Below, piece after piece: positions 2,893-36,058 of a stretch of DNA of 64,000 nt. The stretch covers positions 99,506 to 163,505 of the forward strand of contig JAFGDE010000015.1 of NCBI GenBank assembly GCA_016932255.1, given 5' to 3'. The position numbers and the translations under genes were made by a program. The notes below the pieces were generated by a model, which was not told the DNA's origin, did not search any database, and saw nothing but the letters and a program-made list of their open reading frames with translations. Every line of letters starts with the position of its first letter. Position 1 is the stretch's first letter. This stretch comes from Candidatus Saganbacteria bacterium. GTDB lineage: Bacteria; Margulisbacteria; WOR-1; O2-12-FULL-45-9.

Positions 2893-5609
2893 TCGGACGA
2901 TCGTTAGCTTTAGTTTGCCTGGCAGTGGGAGCCTGCTGCCTGCTGCTTGCCCCTGTTCAGGCGCAACAGCATCCTCAAGCCCTTTGGTCGCAGTACGGCA
3001 TTGTCATTAACGACACGCCGGGCAATACTCCGCAGGAAAAACCGCAAATATTCAGCGACGGCTACAGCGGCTATATTATTGTCTGGGAGGACGGCCGCAG
3101 CGGTTACTACGATATTTACACGCAGAAGATCGATGAATCCGGCCGCGCCCTTTGGTCAAAGAAAGGGATCCCGGTCTGTGAATGTCCAGGCAACCAGAAT
3201 TTTCCTCACGCTGTCGGCGACGGGGCCGGCGGGTTATTTGCCGTCTGGCAGGATTACCGCAGCGGCGCTTCCGATATCTATGCTCAGCATATCAATTATC
3301 AGGGCAAGACGCTCTGGGGCGAGAAAGGCAAGTTGGTTTGCGGCGCACCGGCCGGCCAGTTCGCTCCACAGGCAGCCGCAGACGGCTCAGGCGGTGTGAT
3401 TATCGTCTGGCATGATTACCGCAGCGGCACCGGAGAGGATATTTACGCTCAAAGGCTTGATAACAACGGCGAAGCCGTCTGGGCCAATGACGGCGCGCCT
3501 GTCTCACTGGCCAAGGGCACGCAATGGTATCCCAAGCTCGTTTCTGACGGCAGCGGCGGGGCCCTTATTACTTGGTCAGACGGCCGCAACGGCGCCAGCA
3601 ACAATGATATTTACATCCAATACCTGAACGCCAGCGGACAGCCTCTTTGGGAAAAAGATGGGATCGCGCTTTGCGCGGCGGAACGCAATCAGGAAAAGCC
3701 CGTTATCATGGCTGTCACCGAAGAGCGGGCAATCAGCGGCGCTGTTATTGCCTGGCAGGATGAGCGCCACCGCAACACCGATGTCTACGCCCAGAAGATC
3801 GACCTGAGCGGCCACGTACAATGGGCCCAGGATGGGGTGGCGGTCTGCCTTTTCCCTTACACCCAGCAGAATATCCAGCTTTCACCCGACGGTTCGGGTG
3901 GGGCCATTTTAGCTTGGGAAGACCAGCGTGAGGAAAAAAGCGACATTTATGTCCAGCGTATCTACAGCAGCGGACAGACCGCCTGGTCAGAGAACGGCCG
4001 GCCGGTCTGCCGCGCTTTTGGCGAGCAAAAAGCGCCGGCGATCACCAAGCTGGTTTCGGAAGACTGGATCATCGTTTGGGAGGATGAACAACCGGGCCGC
4101 CGCAAGTACGACATTTTCGCGCAGAAGATCAATAGCTCCGGCACCCCGCTGTGGGACCCCCGAGGTCTGCCGCTGGTCTCGGCCCGGCAGCGGCAAGGCG
4201 CGCCGGCGACCACCACAACACCTAAAGGCAATGTTGTCGTTGCCTGGGAAGATGCTCGGGAAGGCAACTACGATATTTATGCCCAGAAGGTCTCCACCGA
4301 CGGCGAAACGCTCTGGACAGATCAAGGCGTCGAGGTCTGTGCCGCCATCGGCTCAGTCGTCCAGCAGAACGTTCAGCTGACGCTTACTGGCAAGGGTGAG
4401 ATCATTCTGGTCTTTGAGGATGGGCGGCACGGTTATTTCAATATTTACGCTCAGAAGATCTCAAAGGCCGGAGCCCTGGCCTGGGACAAGCACGGTATTG
4501 CGGTGGCAAAAGTGGCCGCCAATCAGGCTAAACCGTGCGTGGTACCCGACGGCAGCGGCGGCGCTTATGTCGCCTGGGAGGATCAAAGGATAGAGAACCT
4601 GCCCAGCATCAGGCTCCAGCGTCTTAGCAGTCAGGGAAAACATCTTTGGGAAAGCAGTCTGCCGGTCGCCAAGGTCAAAGCCCGGCAGACAGATCCGCTT
4701 ATGGTCCCTGACGGGGCCGGCGGGGCGATCATCGCCTGGCAGGACGGCCGGGACATTCTCAGTCTGACCGATCTGTATGTCCAGCGCGTCAATGCCAAAG
4801 GCCAGCTGCTCTGGGGAGAAAAAGGCAAGATCGCCGCCGCGGCCAACGGCGAACAGATCGAAGCGGACATGATCTCCGACGGCGCAGGCGGCGTCATTTT
4901 AACCTGGACGGACTACCGCCGCGGTGACCGCAATCCAGACATCTATGCCCAGCGCCTCAATGCTAAAGGTGCGCCGCTTTGGCAGGAAGACGGTGTTCTG
5001 GTCTGCGGCGCACCGGATGTCCAACGCACCCCCAAACTGATCAGCGATGATCAGGGCGGCGTCATTATCTCCTGGACGGACAAAGGCGGGGGCAGTTATG
5101 ATATCTACGCCCAGCGGATCGATAAAGACGGCCAGCCGCTCTGGATGACCGACGGCATCCCCATCAATCAGATGAGCCGGACCCAACAGAACGCCAGCTT
5201 CGGCAATAAACGGGTGCTGGTCTGGGAAGATTATCGCTATGGCAATTGGGATATTTTTGCCTCAGCCATTTCGCCGGCCGGGAAATTGCTTTGGAACAAT
5301 GACGGTGTCCCGGTTGTTAACCTACCCCACACCCAGTATGCGCCCCAGATAATTCCCTGGAAGAATAACAGCGTACTGATAGCCTGGGAAGACTACCGCA
5401 CCGGCCAGTACTACGAGATATATGTTCAGCGCTTGAACAGTGAGGGCGAGCCTTTATTTGAAGAGAACGGCATGAAGGTCAGATCGCGCGACGGCGGCAG
5501 AGCCCCCAAGATAATCGCTGCGCCCAATGACGACAGCTTCTATGTTTTCTGGGAAGATTATACCGACGGCGGCAAAGCCATCTACGGCCAGCGCTATCTG
5601 CTTTATTGA
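2889..5609 (+). CDS. Secreted beta-propeller-type repeat protein (DGxGGxxxxWxDxR...DIYAQ repeats)
   Basis: Signal peptide; about 14-15 repeats of ~60 aa (DGSGGAIIAWQDxR...DIYAQRLxxxGxxLW); ATGA overlap with smc. Confidence 0.75.
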   Translation: MIGRSLALVCLAVGACCLLLAPVQAQQHPQALWSQYGIVINDTPGNTPQEKPQIFSDGYSGYIIVWEDGRSGYYDIYTQKIDESGRALWSKKGIPVCECPGNQNFPHAVGDGAGGLFAVWQDYRSGASDIYAQHINYQGKTLWGEKGKLVCGAPAGQFAPQAAADGSGGVIIVWHDYRSGTGEDIYAQRLDNNGEAVWANDGAPVSLAKGTQWYPKLVSDGSGGALITWSDGRNGASNNDIYIQYLNASGQPLWEKDGIALCAAERNQEKPVIMAVTEERAISGAVIAWQDERHRNTDVYAQKIDLSGHVQWAQDGVAVCLFPYTQQNIQLSPDGSGGAILAWEDQREEKSDIYVQRIYSSGQTAWSENGRPVCRAFGEQKAPAITKLVSEDWIIVWEDEQPGRRKYDIFAQKINSSGTPLWDPRGLPLVSARQRQGAPATTTTPKGNVVVAWEDAREGNYDIYAQKVSTDGETLWTDQGVEVCAAIGSVVQQNVQLTLTGKGEIILVFEDGRHGYFNIYAQKISKAGALAWDKHGIAVAKVAANQAKPCVVPDGSGGAYVAWEDQRIENLPSIRLQRLSSQGKHLWESSLPVAKVKARQTDPLMVPDGAGGAIIAWQDGRDILSLTDLYVQRVNAKGQLLWGEKGKIAAAANGEQIEADMISDGAGGVILTWTDYRRGDRNPDIYAQRLNAKGAPLWQEDGVLVCGAPDVQRTPKLISDDQGGVIISWTDKGGGSYDIYAQRIDKDGQPLWMTDGIPINQMSRTQQNASFGNKRVLVWEDYRYGNWDIFASAISPAGKLLWNNDGVPVVNLPHTQYAPQIIPWKNNSVLIAWEDYRTGQYYEIYVQRLNSEGEPLFEENGMKVRSRDGGRAPKIIAAPNDDSFYVFWEDYTDGGKAIYGQRYLLY

Positions 5610-11968: not shown

Positions 11969-12880
11969 GTGCAAAATCCGAAATCCTCAGCCGACGGCGG
12001 ACAAAATCAGAAAAAAGACCGGATCACTCAGTTCTTAGGCCATCTGAAGACCGAGCGGAACTATTCACCACACACCCTGAGCAACTACCAGCGCGACCTG
12101 AATTTTCTGCTGGAGTTTATCGGCCAGAGGCAGATTGACCGCTCTGTTGCCCGGGAGTATCTTCTGGCCCTGGAAAAGAAACGCTATTCCAGGCGCTCCA
12201 TTGCCAGGAAATTGTCCTCAGCCAGGTCGTTCTTTCGGTTCCTTGCCAGAGAGAAGTTTATAGACCAGAATCCTTTTGAGAATCTGCTTACGCCAAAACT
12301 GCCGAAGAAACTGCCCAATTTCCTCTACCCCGAAGAGCTGACCGGCCTGTTCAATGCGCCTGGCCTGAAGACCGCACAGGGTCTGCGCGACAGAGCGATC
12401 CTTGAGATCCTCTACGGCACAGGCCTGCGCGTGACAGAAATAAAGAGAATGAACCTGGGGGACATTGATTTTGATGAGGGGGAGATCAAGGTCCTGGGCA
12501 AAGGTTCGAAAGAGCGCATAGTCCTGTTCGGCTCTCATGCCCGGCAGGCGCTGCAAAACTACTTCAAACACGGGCGGCCCGAACTGGCCTTGGGCAAAAA
12601 GACCCCGGTCGTATTCCTCAACCGCCGGGGGACGCGGCTGACCACCAGATCGATCGAACGCATGATCAGCCGCTGTGCCGGCCTGGCCGGACTGAACAAA
12701 AAGGTCACTCCGCATACTTTGCGCCATTCCTTTGCCACTCATCTGCTCTCAGGGGGCGCTGACCTGCGTATGGTCCAGGAACTGCTGGGCCACGTTTCGC
12801 TGTCCACAACCCAGGTTTACACCCATATCACCAAGGAACGCCTCAAAGAGGTCTATGATTCAGCCCATCCCAGGGCCTGA
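11969..12880 (+). CDS. xerC: Tyrosine recombinase XerC/XerD family
   Basis: N-terminal SAM-like domain (YSPHTLSNYQRDL); catalytic R-K-H-R-H-Y (GLRVTE, GKGSKER, HTLRHSFATH, LGH, TQVY). Confidence 0.88.
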   Translation: MQNPKSSADGGQNQKKDRITQFLGHLKTERNYSPHTLSNYQRDLNFLLEFIGQRQIDRSVAREYLLALEKKRYSRRSIARKLSSARSFFRFLAREKFIDQNPFENLLTPKLPKKLPNFLYPEELTGLFNAPGLKTAQGLRDRAILEILYGTGLRVTEIKRMNLGDIDFDEGEIKVLGKGSKERIVLFGSHARQALQNYFKHGRPELALGKKTPVVFLNRRGTRLTTRSIERMISRCAGLAGLNKKVTPHTLRHSFATHLLSGGADLRMVQELLGHVSLSTTQVYTHITKERLKEVYDSAHPRA

Positions 12881-29462: not shown

Positions 29463-30659
29463 ATGAAAAATTTGACCGAACGCGGCAAAGAAGTTCTCTC
29501 CCCCGTATTGGGCCGCTACTTCGCTGATTTTGAGGTCGACAAAGGCGAGGGATGCTACCTTTTTGGGCTGGACGGGAAAAAATATCTGGACTTTTCCTCA
29601 GGTATTGCTGTCTGTGTTATCGGCCATGCTCATCCCAATGTCGTGGCCGCGGCACAGGCCCAGACAGCCAAGCTGATCCATATCTGCATCGGCATTGCCA
29701 GCTATGAACCATACATAAAACTGGCCGAAGAACTGGCAGAAATCGCGCCGTTCAAAGATGCCCAGGTCTTCCTTTGCCAGAGCGGTTCCGAAGCGGTCGA
29801 AGCCGCGATCAAACTGGCCCGTTATTCCTCAAAAAAGACCGGCCTGGCCGCTCTGCGCGGCGGCTTTCACGGCCGCACCCTGGGCGCCCTGTCACTGACG
29901 ACCTCAAAGATGAAATACCGTGACGGCTACGAGCCGCTGGTCCCGGACGTTCACATCGTTGATCCTGACCTGGCCAAGATCGAACAGTTGTTCAAGCAAG
30001 GCGGCATCGCCGGCATTATCCTGGAGCCGATCACCGGCGAGGGCGGCTACAGAGTCCAGTCCAAAGAATTGATCCAGGGCATCCGCAAATTATGCGATAA
30101 ATATAATGTGCTGCTGATCGCGGATGAGATCCAGAGCGGGTTCGGCCGCACGGGCAAGTGGTTCGCCATTGAGCACTTTGGCGTAATACCTGATATTATA
30201 TGTATGGCCAAGGGGATCGCCTCGGGCTTTCCTCTGGGCGGCATCATGGCCCCGGCCGCGCTCATGGCCAAATGGTCCCCCGGTTCCCACGGCGGCACTT
30301 ACGGCGGCAATCCTGTCTGCTGTGCCGCAGCCATTGCCACGATCAAAACGATCAAACAGGAAAAACTGATCGACAAAGCAGCTGAATCCGGCCGCTATCT
30401 GAGCAGCAAGCTTAAAGAACTTCAGGCCGCTCAACCAAAGATCAAGGAAGTCCGCGGCCTTGGACTGATGATCGGGGTCGATTTTGGCGAGTCGAATATG
30501 GTCAAGAAGGTCATCAATGAATGTCTGGCCAACGGCCTGGTCATTATCCCAACGGGCGCTGACGGCACGGTCATCCGTTTTATCCCGCCGCTGATCGTTT
30601 CCCGGGAAGAGATCGACAAGGCCTTGAAAATCTTCGCCCAGGCTGTCTCACATGCCTGA
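29463..30659 (+). CDS. Class III PLP aminotransferase (ArgD/GabT-like)
   Basis: [47 protein letters not shown]. Confidence 0.93.
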
Positions 30660-31161
30660 ATACCTGAACCTTGACGAGCTGCTGGATATCACCCGCAGGA
30701 AAAAAGATCCTGCCTTTATTCTCATTCTCGACGGTATCGAGGATCCCCATAATTTTGGCGCCATTCTTCGCTCGGCCGAAGCCTCCGGGGTCCATGGCGT
30801 TGTTATCCGCAAGAAACGCCAGGTCCAAGTGACCGAGACCGTGGCCAAGGTCTCAACGGGCGCTGCCGACCTGGTAGCCATCGCCCGGGTAGCCAACATC
30901 GCCGAGACCATCAGTCGCCTGCAGGATGCCGGAATCGTCGTGATAGGTGTTGAAATAGACGGTAAAAGGTTATATAATGAACCTGACCTGAAACAGCCGA
31001 CGGCGATCGTCATCGGCAGCGAAGGTTTCGGGATGTCCCGCCTGGTCAAGGAAAGATGCGACGAGATCGTTCGCATCCCGATGCACGGCGAGATCAACTC
31101 GCTTAACGCATCAGTGGCCACGGGCATAATGCTGTACGAAGTGCTCCGACAAAGGAGGTGA
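30652..31161 (+). CDS. rlmB: SpoU/TrmH RNA 2'-O-methyltransferase, RlmB-like (catalytic domain only)
   Basis: LDGIEDPHNFGAILRS, IGSEGFG, SLNASVA; only 169 aa. Confidence 0.8.
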   Translation: MPEYLNLDELLDITRRKKDPAFILILDGIEDPHNFGAILRSAEASGVHGVVIRKKRQVQVTETVAKVSTGAADLVAIARVANIAETISRLQDAGIVVIGVEIDGKRLYNEPDLKQPTAIVIGSEGFGMSRLVKERCDEIVRIPMHGEINSLNASVATGIMLYEVLRQRR

Positions 31162-31167
31162 AATGGT

Positions 31168-31293
31168 ATGGCAGAGAAAGTTCTAAAGTGTGGCATCAAG
31201 AAACAGAAAGGTTACCTGTATTTCATTGACAAGAAAGGTGACATTTCTCGCGCTAAGATGGCTCGCGGCAGGAAGAAAAAGAAACGCCGCTAA
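31168..31293 (+). CDS. Small basic protein (41 aa)
   Basis: MAEKVLKCGIKKQKGYLYFIDKKGDISRAKMARGRKKKKRR after SD AGGAGGTG and followed by a terminator-like hairpin; not in the ORF track. Confidence 0.75.
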   Translation: MAEKVLKCGIKKQKGYLYFIDKKGDISRAKMARGRKKKKRR

Positions 31294-31302
31294 TGGTCCT
31301 AA

Positions 31303-31357
31303 TGGTTGCGGTTGCGGATCCGTAGAGTCGTTACGGGTCTCGTAACCGCAACCTTTT
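31303..31357 (+). terminator. Long hairpin with T-tract after the small basic protein gene
   Basis: GGTTGCGGTTGCGGATCCGTA...TACGGGTCTCGTAACCGCAACC-TTTT. Confidence 0.6.
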
Positions 31358-31411
31358 ATTGGCGCCCTTCCCTCTCCGCTGATGAAGGAGCAGGCACAGG
31401 GCGCTTCGTGC

Positions 31412-31497
31412 GGAGAGGTAGCGAAGTGGTCAAACGCATCTGACTGTAAATCAGACGGCTTACGCCTTCGAAGGTTCAAATCCTTCCCTCTCCACCA
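31412..31497 (+). tRNA. tRNA-Tyr(GTA)
   Basis: GGAGAGG acceptor, anticodon arm TCTGA-CTGTAAA-TCAGA, long variable arm, GGTTCAAATCC T-arm, encoded CCA. Confidence 0.97.
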
Positions 31498-31555
31498 CCC
31501 ACTCTTCCTCAAGTACTTCAAACAGACAACAGATCGATCTCTTTTCTGAAAACCT

Positions 31556-31727
31556 GGATTCAAACCCGGGAAAAGATGGGAGGCTCCATCGAATCCGCTA
31601 CAGGCGGATGAGATGGAGGGAAGAAAAACGGAAGTTTTTCTTCCGGGGGATCAGGAAGCGAAGCGACCGTTAAGGGGGCGCAGCCCCCTTAAGGAGTCAG
31701 CCGCAGGCTGACGACGGGTTCTAATCC
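31556..31727. repeat. Structured ~175-nt element, copy 1 (terminal inverted repeats resemble the tRNA T-arm)
   Basis: GGATTCAAACCC...GGGTTCTAATCC ends with internal hairpins; near-identical to 33828-34002. Confidence 0.85.
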
Positions 31728-32171
31728 TTCCCTCTCCATTCTCCCTCGCTCTCGCTTCGCTCGTAGCTTCGGAGAATTAACCATTTATTATCTCTAGGTT
31801 CAAATTTATACTACGTAGTAACGCCAAAGGCGGACGAATAAAATGAGGCCGCAAGAGGGTAGTCCCTAGCGAACAGAGTGAGCCGAGGGGCTTCCTTCTC
31901 CATATATTTATCCCCACTTTTGCTACAATTTCACTAATTATGCTAATTTTGGGAGTGGAAACTTCGTGCGATCAACAAATCCCCACACCAACTTATTAAG
32001 CAAGCTATCATTTACTGATTGGGTATTCTTTTAATAAAGAAAGACTCTTCTTTTACTAACAACCATTATCAACAAGTTGGTGCGGGGACAAACACACCAG
32101 GAGATTTTTGGTTTAAAAGCACTACATTTGATCTTGCGGCAACTGGTAACAGTGTTTTGTGTTAGAACTTT

Positions 32172-32939
32172 TTATCCTTTGTTCTCCTGGATTAATTCCA
32201 CAAAGTCACTTCTTCTATATTGTAAAGCGTGACCAATATCATTTGCAGTGGCAAGTTGTTCCGCTGAATATTCTTTTATACTAATCACTTCTTCGCCGCT
32301 GCCACTAAGCTGAAAAGCTTCGATTTCTTCAGGCGTTACTTTTATTGTAAACAAAGTAAAGAAAAGAGAAAAGCCTTTCTTTGGCATATGGAATTGTGTT
32401 CTGGGAATAAGACGATCCGGATCAATGTCAGCACCAAGCTCTTCGCTAATTTCCCTCTTAGCAGTGATTTCGGCCATCTCATAAGTTATTTTCCCGGAAC
32501 TATCCCTGGCATCAGCTAGATCTTGGGCATTCATCGATCCAGAAGACAGAGCAAAGACCCCTTTCATATCCTGGGCACCTTTACCTCTTTCAAATAAGAC
32601 CAGGTTACCACTTTCCGAATTTATCATGGCAATGAGGGCAACGGCGAATACGCCGCCCAAGCTTCTTTCAGGTTTTGGCACAACCCCTTCGATGACGCCA
32701 TTTTCATCAACCTTAATAAGCAATTCATTTTTAAACCATCCTGGAAATTTAGCGTCCAAAATCTGAAATCTTTGAGCCCGAGTTGTTTTCAATAACTTTT
32801 CATAAATTGTATCCAGCCTGCCTCCAGGTAAACTAGTGAACTGGCGAAGTTTTTTGCTGGTTCCTTCTGGAAGTAATTTCATGGCTCTATGGGTATTAAC
32901 ATAAACAAATTTCACAATAGATGAAACAGTCCCACTCAT
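32172..32939 (-). CDS. NUDIX-fold protein (orphan cassette gene)
   Basis: SGSM...TAKREISEELG Nudix box with an insertion; SD GGAGG upstream. Confidence 0.7.
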   Translation of the reverse strand: MSGTVSSIVKFVYVNTHRAMKLLPEGTSKKLRQFTSLPGGRLDTIYEKLLKTTRAQRFQILDAKFPGWFKNELLIKVDENGVIEGVVPKPERSLGGVFAVALIAMINSESGNLVLFERGKGAQDMKGVFALSSGSMNAQDLADARDSSGKITYEMAEITAKREISEELGADIDPDRLIPRTQFHMPKKGFSLFFTLFTIKVTPEEIEAFQLSGSGEEVISIKEYSAEQLATANDIGHALQYRRSDFVELIQENKG

Positions 32940-33827
32940 TATTATTCCCTCCTAGCTTCTGCTATATAAAATTTGATGGGTTTCACTCCCCACCATATGG
33001 ACATAGGCTCAGGCTTCGCCTTCGCGCTGACCCCACCTATGTCCAGACATATATCTTTCGACACATTTTGGCAAAATTTCATTTTATTTGTAACTATTCA
33101 GGTCCTTTTAGTGTCTTTGCGTCTTAGCGGCAAATAAAAATAGCCGCAAAGGCGTTAAGGCGCAAAGTTTCGCAAAGGGATCCATAAGGACAGAAGTACT
33201 CGAGACCTGAATATTTACCCTTTTCTTATAATTATTGGAAATGATCTGGAACATGGTATACCCAAGGATTTAACAAAATCATTTTATAAAGGTAGTATAC
33301 TTTCTTTATGAATATAGGAGTATTGCTGTGCTTATACTAAGTATCGAAACTTCATGCGATTCAAGAACACATCAGCGATTTTTTTAGCTTAATCACAGGA
33401 TATTTTGATTTGGGAAGAGAATAAAGAATAAAAAGGCACATCGAAAAGTGGCATTTAATTCGAAAGAGGCATAGAAGTCTCTATATTGGATTCCGAGAGC
33501 GGCGAGCCTTGCCTGCCGGCAGGCGGGGCCGCCTCCGGCCCGCTGCGCGACCCTGCGGCGGAAGATCAGTTTTCGTTGGAGGGGAAAGATGCGGCGACTT
33601 TTCGGCACCTAGCGGCGCCTCAAAGTCGCCGCTCCAACGCAATGGTTTGCGGTAAAAATAAAATGGCTCGAGCCTGTGCCTCGGATTTTTATAGGCACAG
33701 GATCAGGCACAGGAGAAGGAACCCCGAGATGATTGAGGAACTACAGGTTCTAATCCTTCCCTCTCCACCACTAACTCTCCTGTTGATCATTATCCCAAAC
33801 AATTAATCAGGTCTTACCTGACCATCA

Positions 33828-34002
33828 AGATTCGAACCCGGGAAAAGATGGGAGGCTCCGCCGAGTCCTGAGCTTGTCGAAGGACGAGGTGGAGGGAAGA
33901 AAAACAGTAGTTTTTCTTCCGGGGGATCAGGGAGCAGAGCGACCGTTAAGGGGGCATAGCCCCCTTAAGGAGTCCGCCGCAGGCAGCCGAGGGTTAGAAT
34001 CC
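33828..34002. repeat. Structured ~175-nt element, copy 2
   Basis: AGATTCGAACCCGGGAAAAGATGGGAGGCTCC...GGGTTAGAATCC; same stems as copy 1 with different loops. Confidence 0.85.
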
Positions 34003-34046
34003 TTGCCTGACAGCAGTCAAAGCAGACAGAAAAAGTTCAATAGAGT

Positions 34047-34781
34047 CTAAGCCCCAACATCCTGAACAAGAATAATTGAAGTGGTTATGTACCGATGCTG
34101 AGGTCCACCGCCTCTACCACAATCACCATTTGTAAGATCATACCTACGGTATTTGCCTTTTTCTACCGTTTCTGTCCAACAGTACATCCCACGTCCTGGT
34201 ATTAAGCCTTTAACTTGTTCGAGTTCCGTTAGGGTTGGAACCCTGAATTTCCCGCCGGACATAGCACTTAACCGGTTAGCAAATTGCCTAGCATCAAGTA
34301 AACTGACACGAGAAATCTCATGCCCTGACTCTGAACGAGAAAGGAGTTCCTGGAGTTCTTTTGCACCATCACCTTTTATTTCAACTCCCTTCATAACCTC
34401 CCTAAACAATCCAATTGTGACCAAATCATTCATAATGCTTACCTCGTCAGAAATAGGAATCATTCCAGGGAGTTCTATTGTAAACTCCCGAGCAGCGGCT
34501 GCTTGAGAACTCTTATCAATTTCTGCTGCTAGCGCATCAATTTGCCCCACGCTCTTTCCAATCATAGAAGCTGCATTTAACTCAACACCAAGGGGCGTAA
34601 AGAACCTCACGTCAATATCTTTTACAGCCGAAAACTCCTCGAACTTTCTGATCACGTCTATCGCCCTAGTTCCACATTCATTTCTCCCTCTGACCTCTAT
34701 CGCCAAAGCTCTTCCGCGATAATTTACATCCCTTGACACTTGTTGGGCCACTGTTAACCTTCTTGCTCCTGTAATTACCAC
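34047..34781 (-). CDS. Hypothetical protein with degenerate FGE-sulfatase (SUMF1/CLec-like) C-terminal domain
   Basis: VTIGLF...VSLLDARQFANRLS...FRVPTLTE...CWTE resembles the FGE-type VT..Y..VSW.DA..F..WLS...RLPTEAE..EW pattern. Confidence 0.55.
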   Translation of the reverse strand: MVITGARRLTVAQQVSRDVNYRGRALAIEVRGRNECGTRAIDVIRKFEEFSAVKDIDVRFFTPLGVELNAASMIGKSVGQIDALAAEIDKSSQAAAAREFTIELPGMIPISDEVSIMNDLVTIGLFREVMKGVEIKGDGAKELQELLSRSESGHEISRVSLLDARQFANRLSAMSGGKFRVPTLTELEQVKGLIPGRGMYCWTETVEKGKYRRYDLTNGDCGRGGGPQHRYITTSIILVQDVGA

Positions 34782-35005
34782 TTTTCATCTACCTCCTAAT
34801 AGGATATGTTCTATTGAACCATAATGAAACATTTACCAAACATATACCGCAGTATTTTTTGCAAATTTCATAATTTTAAAAATATTTAACTTTATTAAAT
34901 TGTTTATCGCCATTATATTGTGGTTCAGAAGGCGCAAAGGACTAATCCTTCTCTCTCCACCACCATCTTTAAACCCCGCCCCCCTTCATATATAATGCTT
35001 ACACC

Positions 35006-36058
35006 ATGGCCCAACATCTTGATTACGGCTTTGATCACTACAAAAAAGGCCTGCATCTTAAAAAATCGAGCCTGACGCCTTGCCGGGTCATTGCCCAGTA
35101 CAATTATATTTATGACCTGGCCGCACCGCATGGAGTGGTCTCAGGCGAATGCTCCGGCAAACTGCTCTATGCCAATGAACTATTGCCGGTAGTCGGCGAT
35201 TGGGTCCTGGCCGAGGCAATGAACGACCTGGCGATCATCCATGAGATCCTGCCCCGCAAGAGCGCGATCTCGCGCAAAGCCGCGGGCCGCGCGGTCAGCG
35301 AACAGGTGCTGGCCGCTAATCTTGACGCCTTGGGCATAGTTACCGCCCTGGACAATAACTACAACCGCAACCGGGTCGAGCGCTTCATTGCCTTAGCGCT
35401 GCAGAACAATATCGAACCAATCCTGATCTTCAATAAAACGGATGTTTGTCCGGACCTGGAAAAGACCAAAGAAGAAGTGGCCCGGCACTTTAACAGTTAT
35501 CGCTCATATTTCATCAGCCTGGTCAGCCGGGAAGGCTTACCCCTGCTGCAGAAAGAGGTCCTGGTCCCCCATCAAACGATCGCCCTGGTCGGCTCTTCCG
35601 GCGTGGGCAAATCGACCCTGATCAATTATCTGCTAAAGGAAGAGGTTATCCCGACCAACGCGGTCAGGCAAAAAGACCAGCGGGGACGGCACACTACGAC
35701 CAGCCGCAATCTTTATCTGCTCAAGAACAAGGCCATGGTCATTGATAATCCAGGTATCAGGGAATTGGGCCTGTGGCAGGCGGACAAAGGCCTGGCCCGC
35801 GTTTTTTCAGAACTTGAGCAGCTCGCTGCTCAATGCCGCTACCCTGACTGCCAGCATCTTTCAGAGCCCGGCTGTGCCGTGCTGAAAGCAGTAGCCTCAG
35901 GCGAGCTGGCTCAAGAGCAATATGATAACTATATCAAACTGCGCAAAGAGAACGAGTTCCTGAAAAGAAAAACCGATAAAAGCCAGGCCGCAAATACTAA
36001 GAAACGCTGGAAAAGCATCTCAAAAGAGATCAAGAGGATCTATAAGAACAAACACTAG
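35006..36058 (+). CDS. rsgA: Ribosome small subunit-dependent GTPase A
   Basis: PVVGDW, NKTD, GSSGVGKST, GRHTTT, DNPG, CxxxxCxHxxEPGC zinc finger. Confidence 0.95.
   Translation: MAQHLDYGFDHYKKGLHLKKSSLTPCRVIAQYNYIYDLAAPHGVVSGECSGKLLYANELLPVVGDWVLAEAMNDLAIIHEILPRKSAISRKAAGRAVSEQVLAANLDALGIVTALDNNYNRNRVERFIALALQNNIEPILIFNKTDVCPDLEKTKEEVARHFNSYRSYFISLVSREGLPLLQKEVLVPHQTIALVGSSGVGKSTLINYLLKEEVIPTNAVRQKDQRGRHTTTSRNLYLLKNKAMVIDNPGIRELGLWQADKGLARVFSELEQLAAQCRYPDCQHLSEPGCAVLKAVASGELAQEQYDNYIKLRKENEFLKRKTDKSQAANTKKRWKSISKEIKRIYKNKH

Follow-up and report, generated by a model that had tools for sequence, protein, structure and literature searches.

How a single tRNA gene comes to be followed by a string of copies of its own 3′ end, and what has been carried in between them, is the question raised by the locus analyzed here, which lies downstream of the tRNA-Tyr(GTA) gene in a 64,000-nt stretch of contig JAFGDE010000015.1 of Candidatus Saganbacteria bacterium (assembly GCA_016932255.1; the whole stretch is referred to as the window). 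Two copies of a structured element stand among these repeats; we refer to its conserved core together with a variable hairpin as the module, and to a spacer plus module enclosed by two tRNA-end copies as a mini. On balance, and with some reserve, we regard the minis as non-autonomous, att-bounded elements that depend for their movement on a site-specific recombinase acting in trans and have the core as their payload. Genomes, contigs and loci are labelled G, C and L with a number, G000 being the present genome and C25 the contig that holds the window; the assembly is a metagenome-assembled genome (MAG) of 89.9% completeness, and this incompleteness bears on every absence reported below.

The functional tRNA-Tyr(GTA) gene (31412..31497, + strand; ARAGORN, Rfam tRNA 67.8 bits) has a native-type T-loop (TTCAAAT) and an encoded CCA at its end, after which element-type spacer sequence begins. 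Direct repeats of its 3′ end (repeat family D2) are found at 31716-31749, 33745-33778 and 34937-34970, and a further, fifth copy near 33991-34010 is degenerate (GGGTTAGAATCCTTGCC). The 16-nt core of the repeat, AATCCTTCCCTCTCCA, allowing up to two mismatches, occurs four times in the window where 0.07 occurrences are expected (0 of 100 shuffles reach four), and these four account for most of the six matches in the whole 1.67-Mb assembly; the repeats noticed in the initial annotation are thus real.

The structured element is present as 31540-31596 plus 31606-31717 and again as 33812-33868 plus 33882-33993, the two parts being 81% and 88% identical between copies; with the tRNA-like ends included, the copies span 31540-31745 and 33812-34010. 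Spacer A (31498..31561, +), which separates tRNA-Tyr from module A by 64 nt, is weakly alignable with spacer B (33771..33833, +). Module A (31562..31716, +) comprises a core at 31562-31696 (covariance-model score 130.3 bits) and a variable hairpin at 31697-31713, and is closed by the tRNA-Tyr 3′-end copy R′A (31717..31740, +), which has the T-loop TTCTAAT, lacks CCA and continues into a T-rich trailer that is native-like by comparison with relatives. The second unit opens with R_B (33745..33770, +; D2 repeat at 91%), a copy with CCA and the T-loop TTCTAAT; the 15 nt upstream of it duplicate 31386-31400 (repeat D9), and the segment ~33712-33770 looks like a gutted tRNA-Tyr pseudogene ending in R_B. 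Module B (33834..33990, +; core 33834-33972, 130.5 bits; variable hairpin 33973-33990) is followed by the degenerate copy R′B (33991..34010, +). Fold z-scores against shuffles are −5.3 for module A and −5.6 for module B (0 of 200 shuffles in each case). The last tRNA-Tyr 3′-end copy, R#5 (34937..34962, +), combines the CTAAT variant with CCA and immediately precedes the promoter region of rsgA (35006-36058). The unit originally described, in which a tRNA 3′ end, a spacer of 64 nt, the element and another 3′ end precede one minus-strand gene (an open reading frame (ORF) of 255 aa in the first unit and of 244 aa in the second), does occur twice; the promoter-like motifs ascribed to these genes are at the level of chance, with 5 sites in the region as against 6.0 in shuffles.

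A covariance model, R1, was built from 11 copies of the core, which is ~135 nt long. It matches 21 times in 15 of the 65 genomes of the class, including four times in the present genome, and in 19 of 146 genomes of the phylum Margulisbacteria, where the core is confined, outside the class, to one further family; it is missing from all 15 further members of the family to which this genome belongs. Module-positive genomes carry from one to four copies at different tRNAs. Besides modules A and B, the present genome has one copy behind tRNA-Gln (C24) and one 130 nt from the end of C27. A pattern scan of 185,579 species genomes returned seven stretches, all of them class genomes already found, and the titles of the contig records with pattern matches read candidate division WOR-1 or Margulisiibacteriota. 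The corresponding metagenome scan returned 14 stretches, all 14 confirmed by R1, some being near-duplicates of each other or of genome loci. No viral parent was detected among phage records (blastn, distant mode) or IMG/VR viral contigs (pattern scan). At E-values up to 1, only the tRNA reaches the Rfam gathering score within 30500-36000, and the module is left unexplained; four other weak matches lie far below cut-off on or beside the tRNA or in the 255-aa ORF, among the weak scores being sX4 at 25 bits (cut-off 70), spanning the tRNA to 31588. On six related loci the Rfam matches were restricted to tRNA, a single group I intron and U6 at a weak score, and the literature searched on Saganbacteria tRNAs and integrases and on miniature integrase-less tRNA elements yielded no description of such minis. 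As judged from these comparisons, the module is a previously undescribed family with no Rfam match.

The family is tied to tRNA 3′ ends. At 14 of the 21 genome matches, the core is preceded on its own strand by a tRNA or tmRNA gene whose end lies 27-69 nt away, and so it is at 12 of the 14 metagenome loci, at a distance of 12-161 nt; at least nine target genes are represented (tRNA-Tyr, Glu-CTC, Glu-TTC, Gln, Ala-GGC, Gly-GCC, Gly-TCC, Gly-CCC and tmRNA). The other seven genome matches are one copy after an intron-split tRNA, module B, two copies at contig starts and three with no tRNA within 200 nt. The intron-split tRNA precedes the module at G033:C10 (L067:1073-1309) and contains a group I intron (Rfam 104 bits), because of which it was missed by ARAGORN. 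Directly 3′ of the core stands a copy of the upstream tRNA's own 3′ end, from the T-loop region to the discriminator base, and the exact run shared by this tail and the upstream tRNA end is 8-37 nt long, with at least 14 nt in 12 of 14 genome copies. In G054, which also has a tandem mini at a contig end, two loci carry otherwise identical modules, and at each the T-loop variant of the tail matches that of its own tRNA.

The minis are normally devoid of genes. Two tRNA-end copies only, and no gene between them, are found in the C24 copy of the present genome and in G031, G041 and G020, and the same holds for 11 of the 12 metagenome loci with a tRNA; at L101 there is a third tRNA-end copy, which belongs to a pseudo-tRNA. 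No ORF lies between a tRNA end and its downstream copy in any mini. Since the copies checked elsewhere are gene-less, the tRNA-Tyr locus of the window, with its two minus-strand genes, is the exception.

That the mini is an insertion is seen at tRNA-Glu(TTC), where an empty orthologous site can be set against filled ones. Five metagenome contigs have tRNA-Glu(TTC), spacer, module, tRNA-end copy, thiamine pyrophosphate (TPP) riboswitch and thiamine gene in this order, so that the module and a duplicated GATTCCCCGTGGGGCTAT are placed between the tRNA and the riboswitch, whereas in G041 tRNA-Glu(TTC) directly abuts the TPP riboswitch. The spacer at this locus varies from 12 to 78 nt by insertions and deletions, and the core is intact with compensatory changes. 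Furthermore, the tRNA terminus has been exchanged, as in tRNA-integrated islands. In six relatives tRNA-Tyr ends with ...CTCTCCA followed by T, without an encoded CCA, while the tRNA-Tyr of the window ends with ...CTCTCCACCA; the T-rich, native-like continuation is found on the copy that follows module A. The reverse pattern, a gene without CCA and a downstream fragment with CCA, is found at tRNA-Ala (G031, L098, L102) and tmRNA (G041); the uninterrupted tRNA-Ala(GGC) and tmRNA of the present genome encode CCA, and taking them as the native state is a cross-genome comparison. The functional tRNA-Tyr (CAAAT, with CCA) and R′A (CTAAT, without CCA) look like the reciprocal recombinants of a native site and a site of the CTAAT-with-CCA type, which occurs in R_B and R#5. 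The ends of the minis are marked, as those of tRNA-integrated islands are, by a regenerated target and a displaced direct 3′ fragment, and no integrase gene lies inside any mini; attL- and attR-like ends are kept and recombination genes are gone.

The core contains three helices with strong covariation, joined by conserved junctions. Over 30 distinct sequences, 96.5% of the alignment cells at paired positions are paired, compared with 57-61% when the partners are slid, a value reached by none of 500 shuffles, and double changes are found in 19 of 29 core base pairs; the alignment was fitted to the covariance model, which favours structure. When read on the tRNA strand, G-U pairs outnumber A-C pairs by 22 to 7, the loop of P2 is in most cases a GNRA loop, and nearly invariant, purine-rich strands join the helices, all of which argues for a structure formed by a single strand, most likely RNA on the tRNA strand, and the most likely role of the core is accordingly that of a structured RNA of this strand. 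GC-rich palindromic hairpins at the tips or joints of P1, P3 and P5 (e.g., 31697-31713 and 33973-33990) vary between copies. In most copies a closing helix can be drawn between the left edge of the module and the start of the tRNA-like tail, with z-scores from −3.3 to +2.1; we rejected it as an RNA structure in view of these weak scores, the near-palindrome of the T-loop or the dyad of an att site explaining it equally well. In the second Margulisbacteria family, the module behind tRNA-Gln at G129:C15 (L121; reverse strand, ~5010-5175) is closed by a perfect 14-bp helix between a copy of the acceptor-5′ and T-stem-5′ strands and the tRNA-like tail, ending in GCCA, a layout that amounts to a tRNA minihelix whose T-loop holds the module. 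Only about two of the module copies have the acceptor-5′ complement.

The repeats had been presented as lacking a local integrase, and this holds inasmuch as the array contains no intact integrase gene; it does contain a recombinase remnant. The ~65 C-terminal residues of a large serine recombinase are encoded at 33471..33671 (+; tblastn), with 64% identity over 67 aa to the recombinase at L149 (E 2e-16) and 54% over 65 aa to the tRNA-Tyr-linked recombinase of G013 (E 1e-8). Only the extreme C-terminal tail is left, without the Resolvase, Recombinase and zinc-ribbon domains that the intact homologue of G040 carries, and the similarity comes from tblastn alone; the stump overlaps a 144-nt repeat that is 89.6% identical to the end of C22 beside tRNA-Leu (blastn). 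Further C-terminal stumps are present in the genome at this end of C22 (E 4e-18) and at the start of C23. Three contigs end inside a repeat of recombinase 3′ end and tRNA trailer beside tRNAs (C22:149940-150110, C23:9-107, C24:131046-131131). Contigs that end in recombinase 3′ ends indicate that recombinase islands exist in the organism and were not assembled; the MAG probably lacks islands at tRNA-Leu(TAG), at tRNA-Met and at other places. The breakage of three contigs inside islands also means that an apparent lack of integrases in a genome can be an assembly artefact.

An intact island is found in G040, where 12.7 kb separate tRNA-Glu(CTC) from a module at which 19 nt of the tRNA end are repeated. 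Its first gene (L137:3263-4789) encodes a large serine recombinase of 508 aa, the last codons of which lie antisense over the tRNA. Homologues occur in 40 of the 65 class genomes, and in 19 of the best 20 loci a tRNA gene stands next to the recombinase gene and convergent with it, with 11 tRNA species represented; three of the 19 are at tRNA-Tyr (G013, G011 and G059), two of them in this genome's own family, and the 20th locus consists of tRNA-Tyr followed by an antisense remnant of a recombinase 3′ end. At these loci (L138-L157) the reading frame for the C-terminal tail of the recombinase (e.g., ...RGIEP...) runs antisense across the T-arm of the tRNA, and a GCGAAC-type motif follows the tRNA after 11-17 nt in all 20 (13 by regular expression, 7 by eye). 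The same type of motif stands at the same distance at the left edge of the module at L095. The G040 module has a second, diverged tRNA-like fragment 56 nt upstream, from which it appears that the island probably landed on a tRNA already bearing a mini.

Tyrosine integrases use such sites as well. At tRNA-Tyr of G032 (L089, C1:27600-46000), a 14-kb island has a 391-aa tyrosine integrase adjoining the tRNA and a 51-nt tRNA 3′ repeat at its far end, so that two recombinase types are seen to act here. The supposition that the repeats are independent of integrase-bearing elements does not survive the remnant in the array and the intact recombinases at tRNA-Tyr in G032, G013, G011 and G059. The proteins of the G032 island, the integrase included, gave nothing below E 0.04 against 31300-35100 (tblastn). 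PF00589 is represented in the assembly by two genes, in C16 and at C25:111825-112343 (window ~12320-12838, 19 kb away), both of ~300-326 aa with Xer-like scores, and by none in 31300-35100, the test being one of the recombinase domain as a whole. TnpB (PF07282), IS110 (PF01548), Cas1 (PF01867) and reverse transcriptase (PF00078) have no match in the assembly. Y1 transposases of the IS200/RAYT type were discarded as candidate movers; they occur in 41 of the 65 genomes and show no association with the module (10 of 15 positive and 31 of 50 negative genomes). The "recombinase-in-trio" elements considered for G031 and G040 were likewise discarded, the Pfam domains being those of one Phage_integrase-AAA fusion among unrelated genes. 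Such fusions of a phage integrase with an AAA ATPase, of 485-491 aa, are encoded at L137:10919-12376 (G040) and L052:15525-17000 (G031) and are 60% identical to each other; further matches, in open frames 490-501 aa long, lie at other places in G031, G032 and G040.

Under trans-mobilization, the tRNA-Tyr 3′ end would be an integration hotspot at which the products of several site-specific insertions have accreted and for the most part decayed, and here the initial annotation was right to propose serial site-specific events at the tRNA 3′ end, the content downstream varying between relatives. The gene-less insert, of ~170-250 bp, consists of a short spacer and the multi-hairpin core, bounded on the left by the regenerated tRNA 3′ end and on the right by the second T-loop-to-discriminator copy, in the manner of attL and attR, and the crossover would take place at or near the tRNA 3′ end. 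The best candidate for the mover would be the family of large serine recombinases that sits against tRNA 3′ ends in the class and is represented by the stump in the array. Behind tRNA-Tyr one could then read, in sequence, mini A, a decayed islet that holds the NUDIX-like gene (the 255-aa ORF) and, inverted, the recombinase stump, next a gutted copy of tRNA-Tyr whose last part is R_B, mini B, the tail of which has decayed, an islet containing the 244-aa gene, and R#5 in front of rsgA.

Several observations weigh against this reading. A circle of ~200 bp is a doubtful recombination substrate, and serial integration at one site, in its simple form, would not produce the order seen here, in which the native right end R′A comes second and the sites of the CCA type lie farther out. 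No recombinase gene stands beside any mini, where the screen for serine recombinases covered part of the flanks; the Resolvase domain has no match in the ~90%-complete assembly. For tyrosine recombinases, ~221 kb of flanks of ~35 copies gave matches (tblastn) only in G031, at a distance of 14 kb, and in G040, at 3.5 kb, and the f46 loci gave none (tblastn). Co-occurrence with the serine recombinase is loose, a close homologue being present in ~6 of the 15 module-positive genomes, and the arrangement of island and module in G040 is probably no proof of a link. Furthermore, the island fragment on the attR side in G040 is only loosely tRNA-like, as opposed to the 14-37 nt of exact identity in the minis, and a different recombinase, e.g., a tyrosine integrase as in G032, may therefore be the mover. 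Contigs from the source sample, which give partial cover, contain no excision, circular or joint junctions.

The minis might instead be immobile, in-situ scars, i.e., the ends of larger recombinase-bearing islands that have lost their interior by deletion. Decay that keeps attL and attR and loses the recombination genes is a route documented for cis-mobilizable elements (CIMEs; PMC5704250, in the part cited here), the spacers at one orthologous locus range from 12 to 78 nt through indels, the full island of G040 has a core near its far end, and the GCGAAC-type motif, present both at the left edge of the core and at the recombinase-side end of islands, could promote such deletions. However, identical end-points recur at nine or more different tRNA and tmRNA genes, no gene is left between spacer and core wherever an upstream tRNA is found (26 of 35 copies), the tandem mini of G054 is hard to derive in this way, the G040 arrangement is better read as accretion onto a pre-existing mini, and R1 has no match in the recombinase islands of module-negative genomes such as G013 and G011. 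We consider these scars an unlikely, though serious, alternative. Improbable, in our judgement, is a host-serving RNA, in which the core would be a structured non-coding RNA co-transcribed with or behind the tRNA as a trailer, processing or regulatory element, with the tRNA-like 3′ segment as part of the RNA and its spread incidental. The covariation, the excess of G-U over A-C pairs, the GNRA loop, the invariant purine-rich joints, the constant location on the tRNA strand, the persistence of an intact core where the spacer decays and the perfect 14-bp acceptor/T-stem minihelix ending in GCCA in G129 are what such an RNA would predict; against it stand the patchy occurrence (15 of 65 class genomes, 0 of 15 others in the own family, one to four copies at different tRNAs), the empty orthologous site of G041, the acceptor-5′ complement in only about two copies and module B, whose core is kept though its tRNA-like tail has decayed.

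A mobile variant of the RNA proposal, distinctly improbable as we see it, would give the core a function as a structured RNA and make it the only cargo of a mobile element that integrates at tRNAs and is smaller than any seen so far, with the tail and the T-arm-like closing helix (in one lineage a perfect acceptor/T-stem minihelix) helping to choose or regulate the target; if true, this would be a protein-less "mobile RNA gene" riding on recombinases of the host or of islands, and could explain the colonization of at least nine tRNA and tmRNA genes. Very unlikely is a target-copying or guide-type mechanism, with the tail as a casposase-like target-site duplication or as a 3′ guide on an RNA scaffold that homes to tRNA genes in the manner of TnpB, Cas12k or CRISPR-associated transposons (CAST). 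Its attraction lies in the arrangement of a scaffold followed by 14-23 nt of tRNA identity, where the target lies 12-78 bp upstream and has the T-loop beside it as a constant motif, in the presence of one element lineage at Glu-CTC, Glu-TTC, Gln and an intron-containing tRNA, and in the G054 tails that match their own tRNAs, but TnpB, IS110, Cas1 and reverse transcriptase are unmatched in the assembly, the repeats are anywhere between 8 and 37 nt long, module B has persisted although its tail does not match, and the replacement of the tRNA terminus and trailer (the CCA swap) would be unexpected for insertion downstream of an intact target. The proposal from which the analysis started, a tRNA-anchored analogue of an integron in which the tRNA would take up single-gene cassettes one after another, with the folded element serving as attC-like site, accounts for the two units with one minus-strand gene each and for the 17-18-nt motifs upstream of both genes; it is scarcely credible in the light of the copies elsewhere, which where checked are gene-less and have no variable genes associated, of a module that is a multi-helix junction with at least three covarying helices and not a single imperfect hairpin, and of the placement of the genes after the tRNA-like end of the module, one flank holding the recombinase stump. 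No integron integrase, attI or Pc-like platform was found, and our data do not lend support to an integron-like gene-capture platform.

With regard to the genes of the array, trans-mobilization would assign the two minus-strand genes to other islets at the same hotspot, and they are probably remnants of these and not cassettes recruited by the module. The 255-aa ORF (32172..32939, −) is present in one of the 65 class genomes and lies in DNA with a GC content of 0.36-0.44, the genome being at ~0.53. Its annotation as a NUDIX gene stands as a weak similarity (Pfam NUDIX E 1e-3, with a weak MutT-family match) and fails as a family call, the score of 19.6 bits lying below the cut-off of 21.1. The 244-aa ORF (34047..34781, −), also in low-GC DNA, had been called FGE-like, for which searches of Pfam, NCBIfam and PADLOC gave no match; the domain at its C terminus is that of a family with multiple copies in the class, present in 23 of 65 genomes. 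A homologue in G006, with 41% identity over 181 aa, is located ~1.2 kb downstream of tRNA-Tyr, and the gene directly after that tRNA and before the homologue (L085, G006:C30) has by eye an HPFxxGNGR-like motif, which we take to be of the Fic type. The 17-18-nt motifs common to the upstream regions of both minus-strand genes constitute repeat D6.

Alignment of the locus across relatives, as the initial annotation had advised, confirmed variable content downstream. Upstream synteny is kept among the relatives examined (aminotransferase, SpoU methylase, small ORF, tRNA-Tyr), and downstream of tRNA-Tyr the gene content is different in every one of them. The small ORF, which encodes 42 aa, is very basic and directly follows the SpoU-type methylase gene (31165-31294, +), has the same position in the loci of eight relatives with 70-96% identity over 27 aa (tblastn), and no Pfam or NCBIfam match. 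Additional partial tRNA-Tyr copies are present at G023:C38 (L090), at 437-493, 762-821 and 1869-1928; they include two copies of the 5′ part of the tRNA, located upstream of the gene, and are not explained by 3′-end integration alone.

Integron cassettes combine a folded, orientation-specific sequence with single genes and are acquired serially and site-specifically, the attC site being a single bulged hairpin. The minis differ in that they have no intI/attI/Pc platform, are normally gene-less and are tied to tRNA 3′ ends. With miniature inverted-repeat transposable elements (MITEs) and REP-type repeats they share small size, non-coding nature, structure and the lack of an own enzyme, but they have att-like, tRNA-specific ends instead of transposon-type inverted ends with short duplications. 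CIMEs are kilobase-scale decayed integrative conjugative or mobilizable elements (ICEs/IMEs) of Firmicutes. What is new here is a family of gene-less miniature inserts with a strongly covarying core and no Rfam family, set in what we regard as a clean example of tRNA-seeded islands growing by accretion in a barely studied phylum with streamlined genomes of 1-2 Mb, the accretion resembling that of Prochlorococcus tycheposons and streptococcal CIMEs.

According to the sections cited, CIMEs keep attL and attR without recombination genes, and the integration of newcomers at their att sites leads to tandem decayed arrays at a tRNA 3′ end (PMC5704250); the minis are likewise att-bounded, devoid of recombination genes and accreted in tandem, but they constitute a uniform, putatively mobilized module of ~135 nt at many tRNAs of an uncultured phylum. 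In the definition used for the Islander set, as far as quoted here, an island splits its target gene and restores it, so that the regenerated gene and a displaced direct 3′ fragment mark the ends (PMC4383910). The minis have this end anatomy, and tmRNA is a target in both cases; unlike those tRNA and tmRNA islands, they measure 170-250 bp and have no integrase and no genes, the conserved structured core being their only content. The tycheposon islands of Prochlorococcus are seeded at tRNA and tmRNA genes, and newer integrations push older elements outward (bioRxiv 10.1101/2020.12.28.424599, in the portion considered). Streamlined genomes, partial tRNAs and fragmented integrases scattered in the island are common to both systems; tycheposons, however, carry an integrase and cargo, and a gene-less structured mini is not described in that portion of the account. 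For phage Ms6, the cited passages describe a 26-bp core from the T-arm of tRNA-Ala to its 3′ end, and edits in the attP core that retarget integration to other tRNA-Ala genes (PMC1762012), which provides an experimental precedent for an element family that shifts between tRNAs by way of a T-loop-to-3′-end core, although Ms6 has its own tyrosine integrase and is phage-sized. The serine recombinases found at 11 tRNA species would be a natural series of such retargeted integrases, and may be of interest to those who mine genomes for enzymes.

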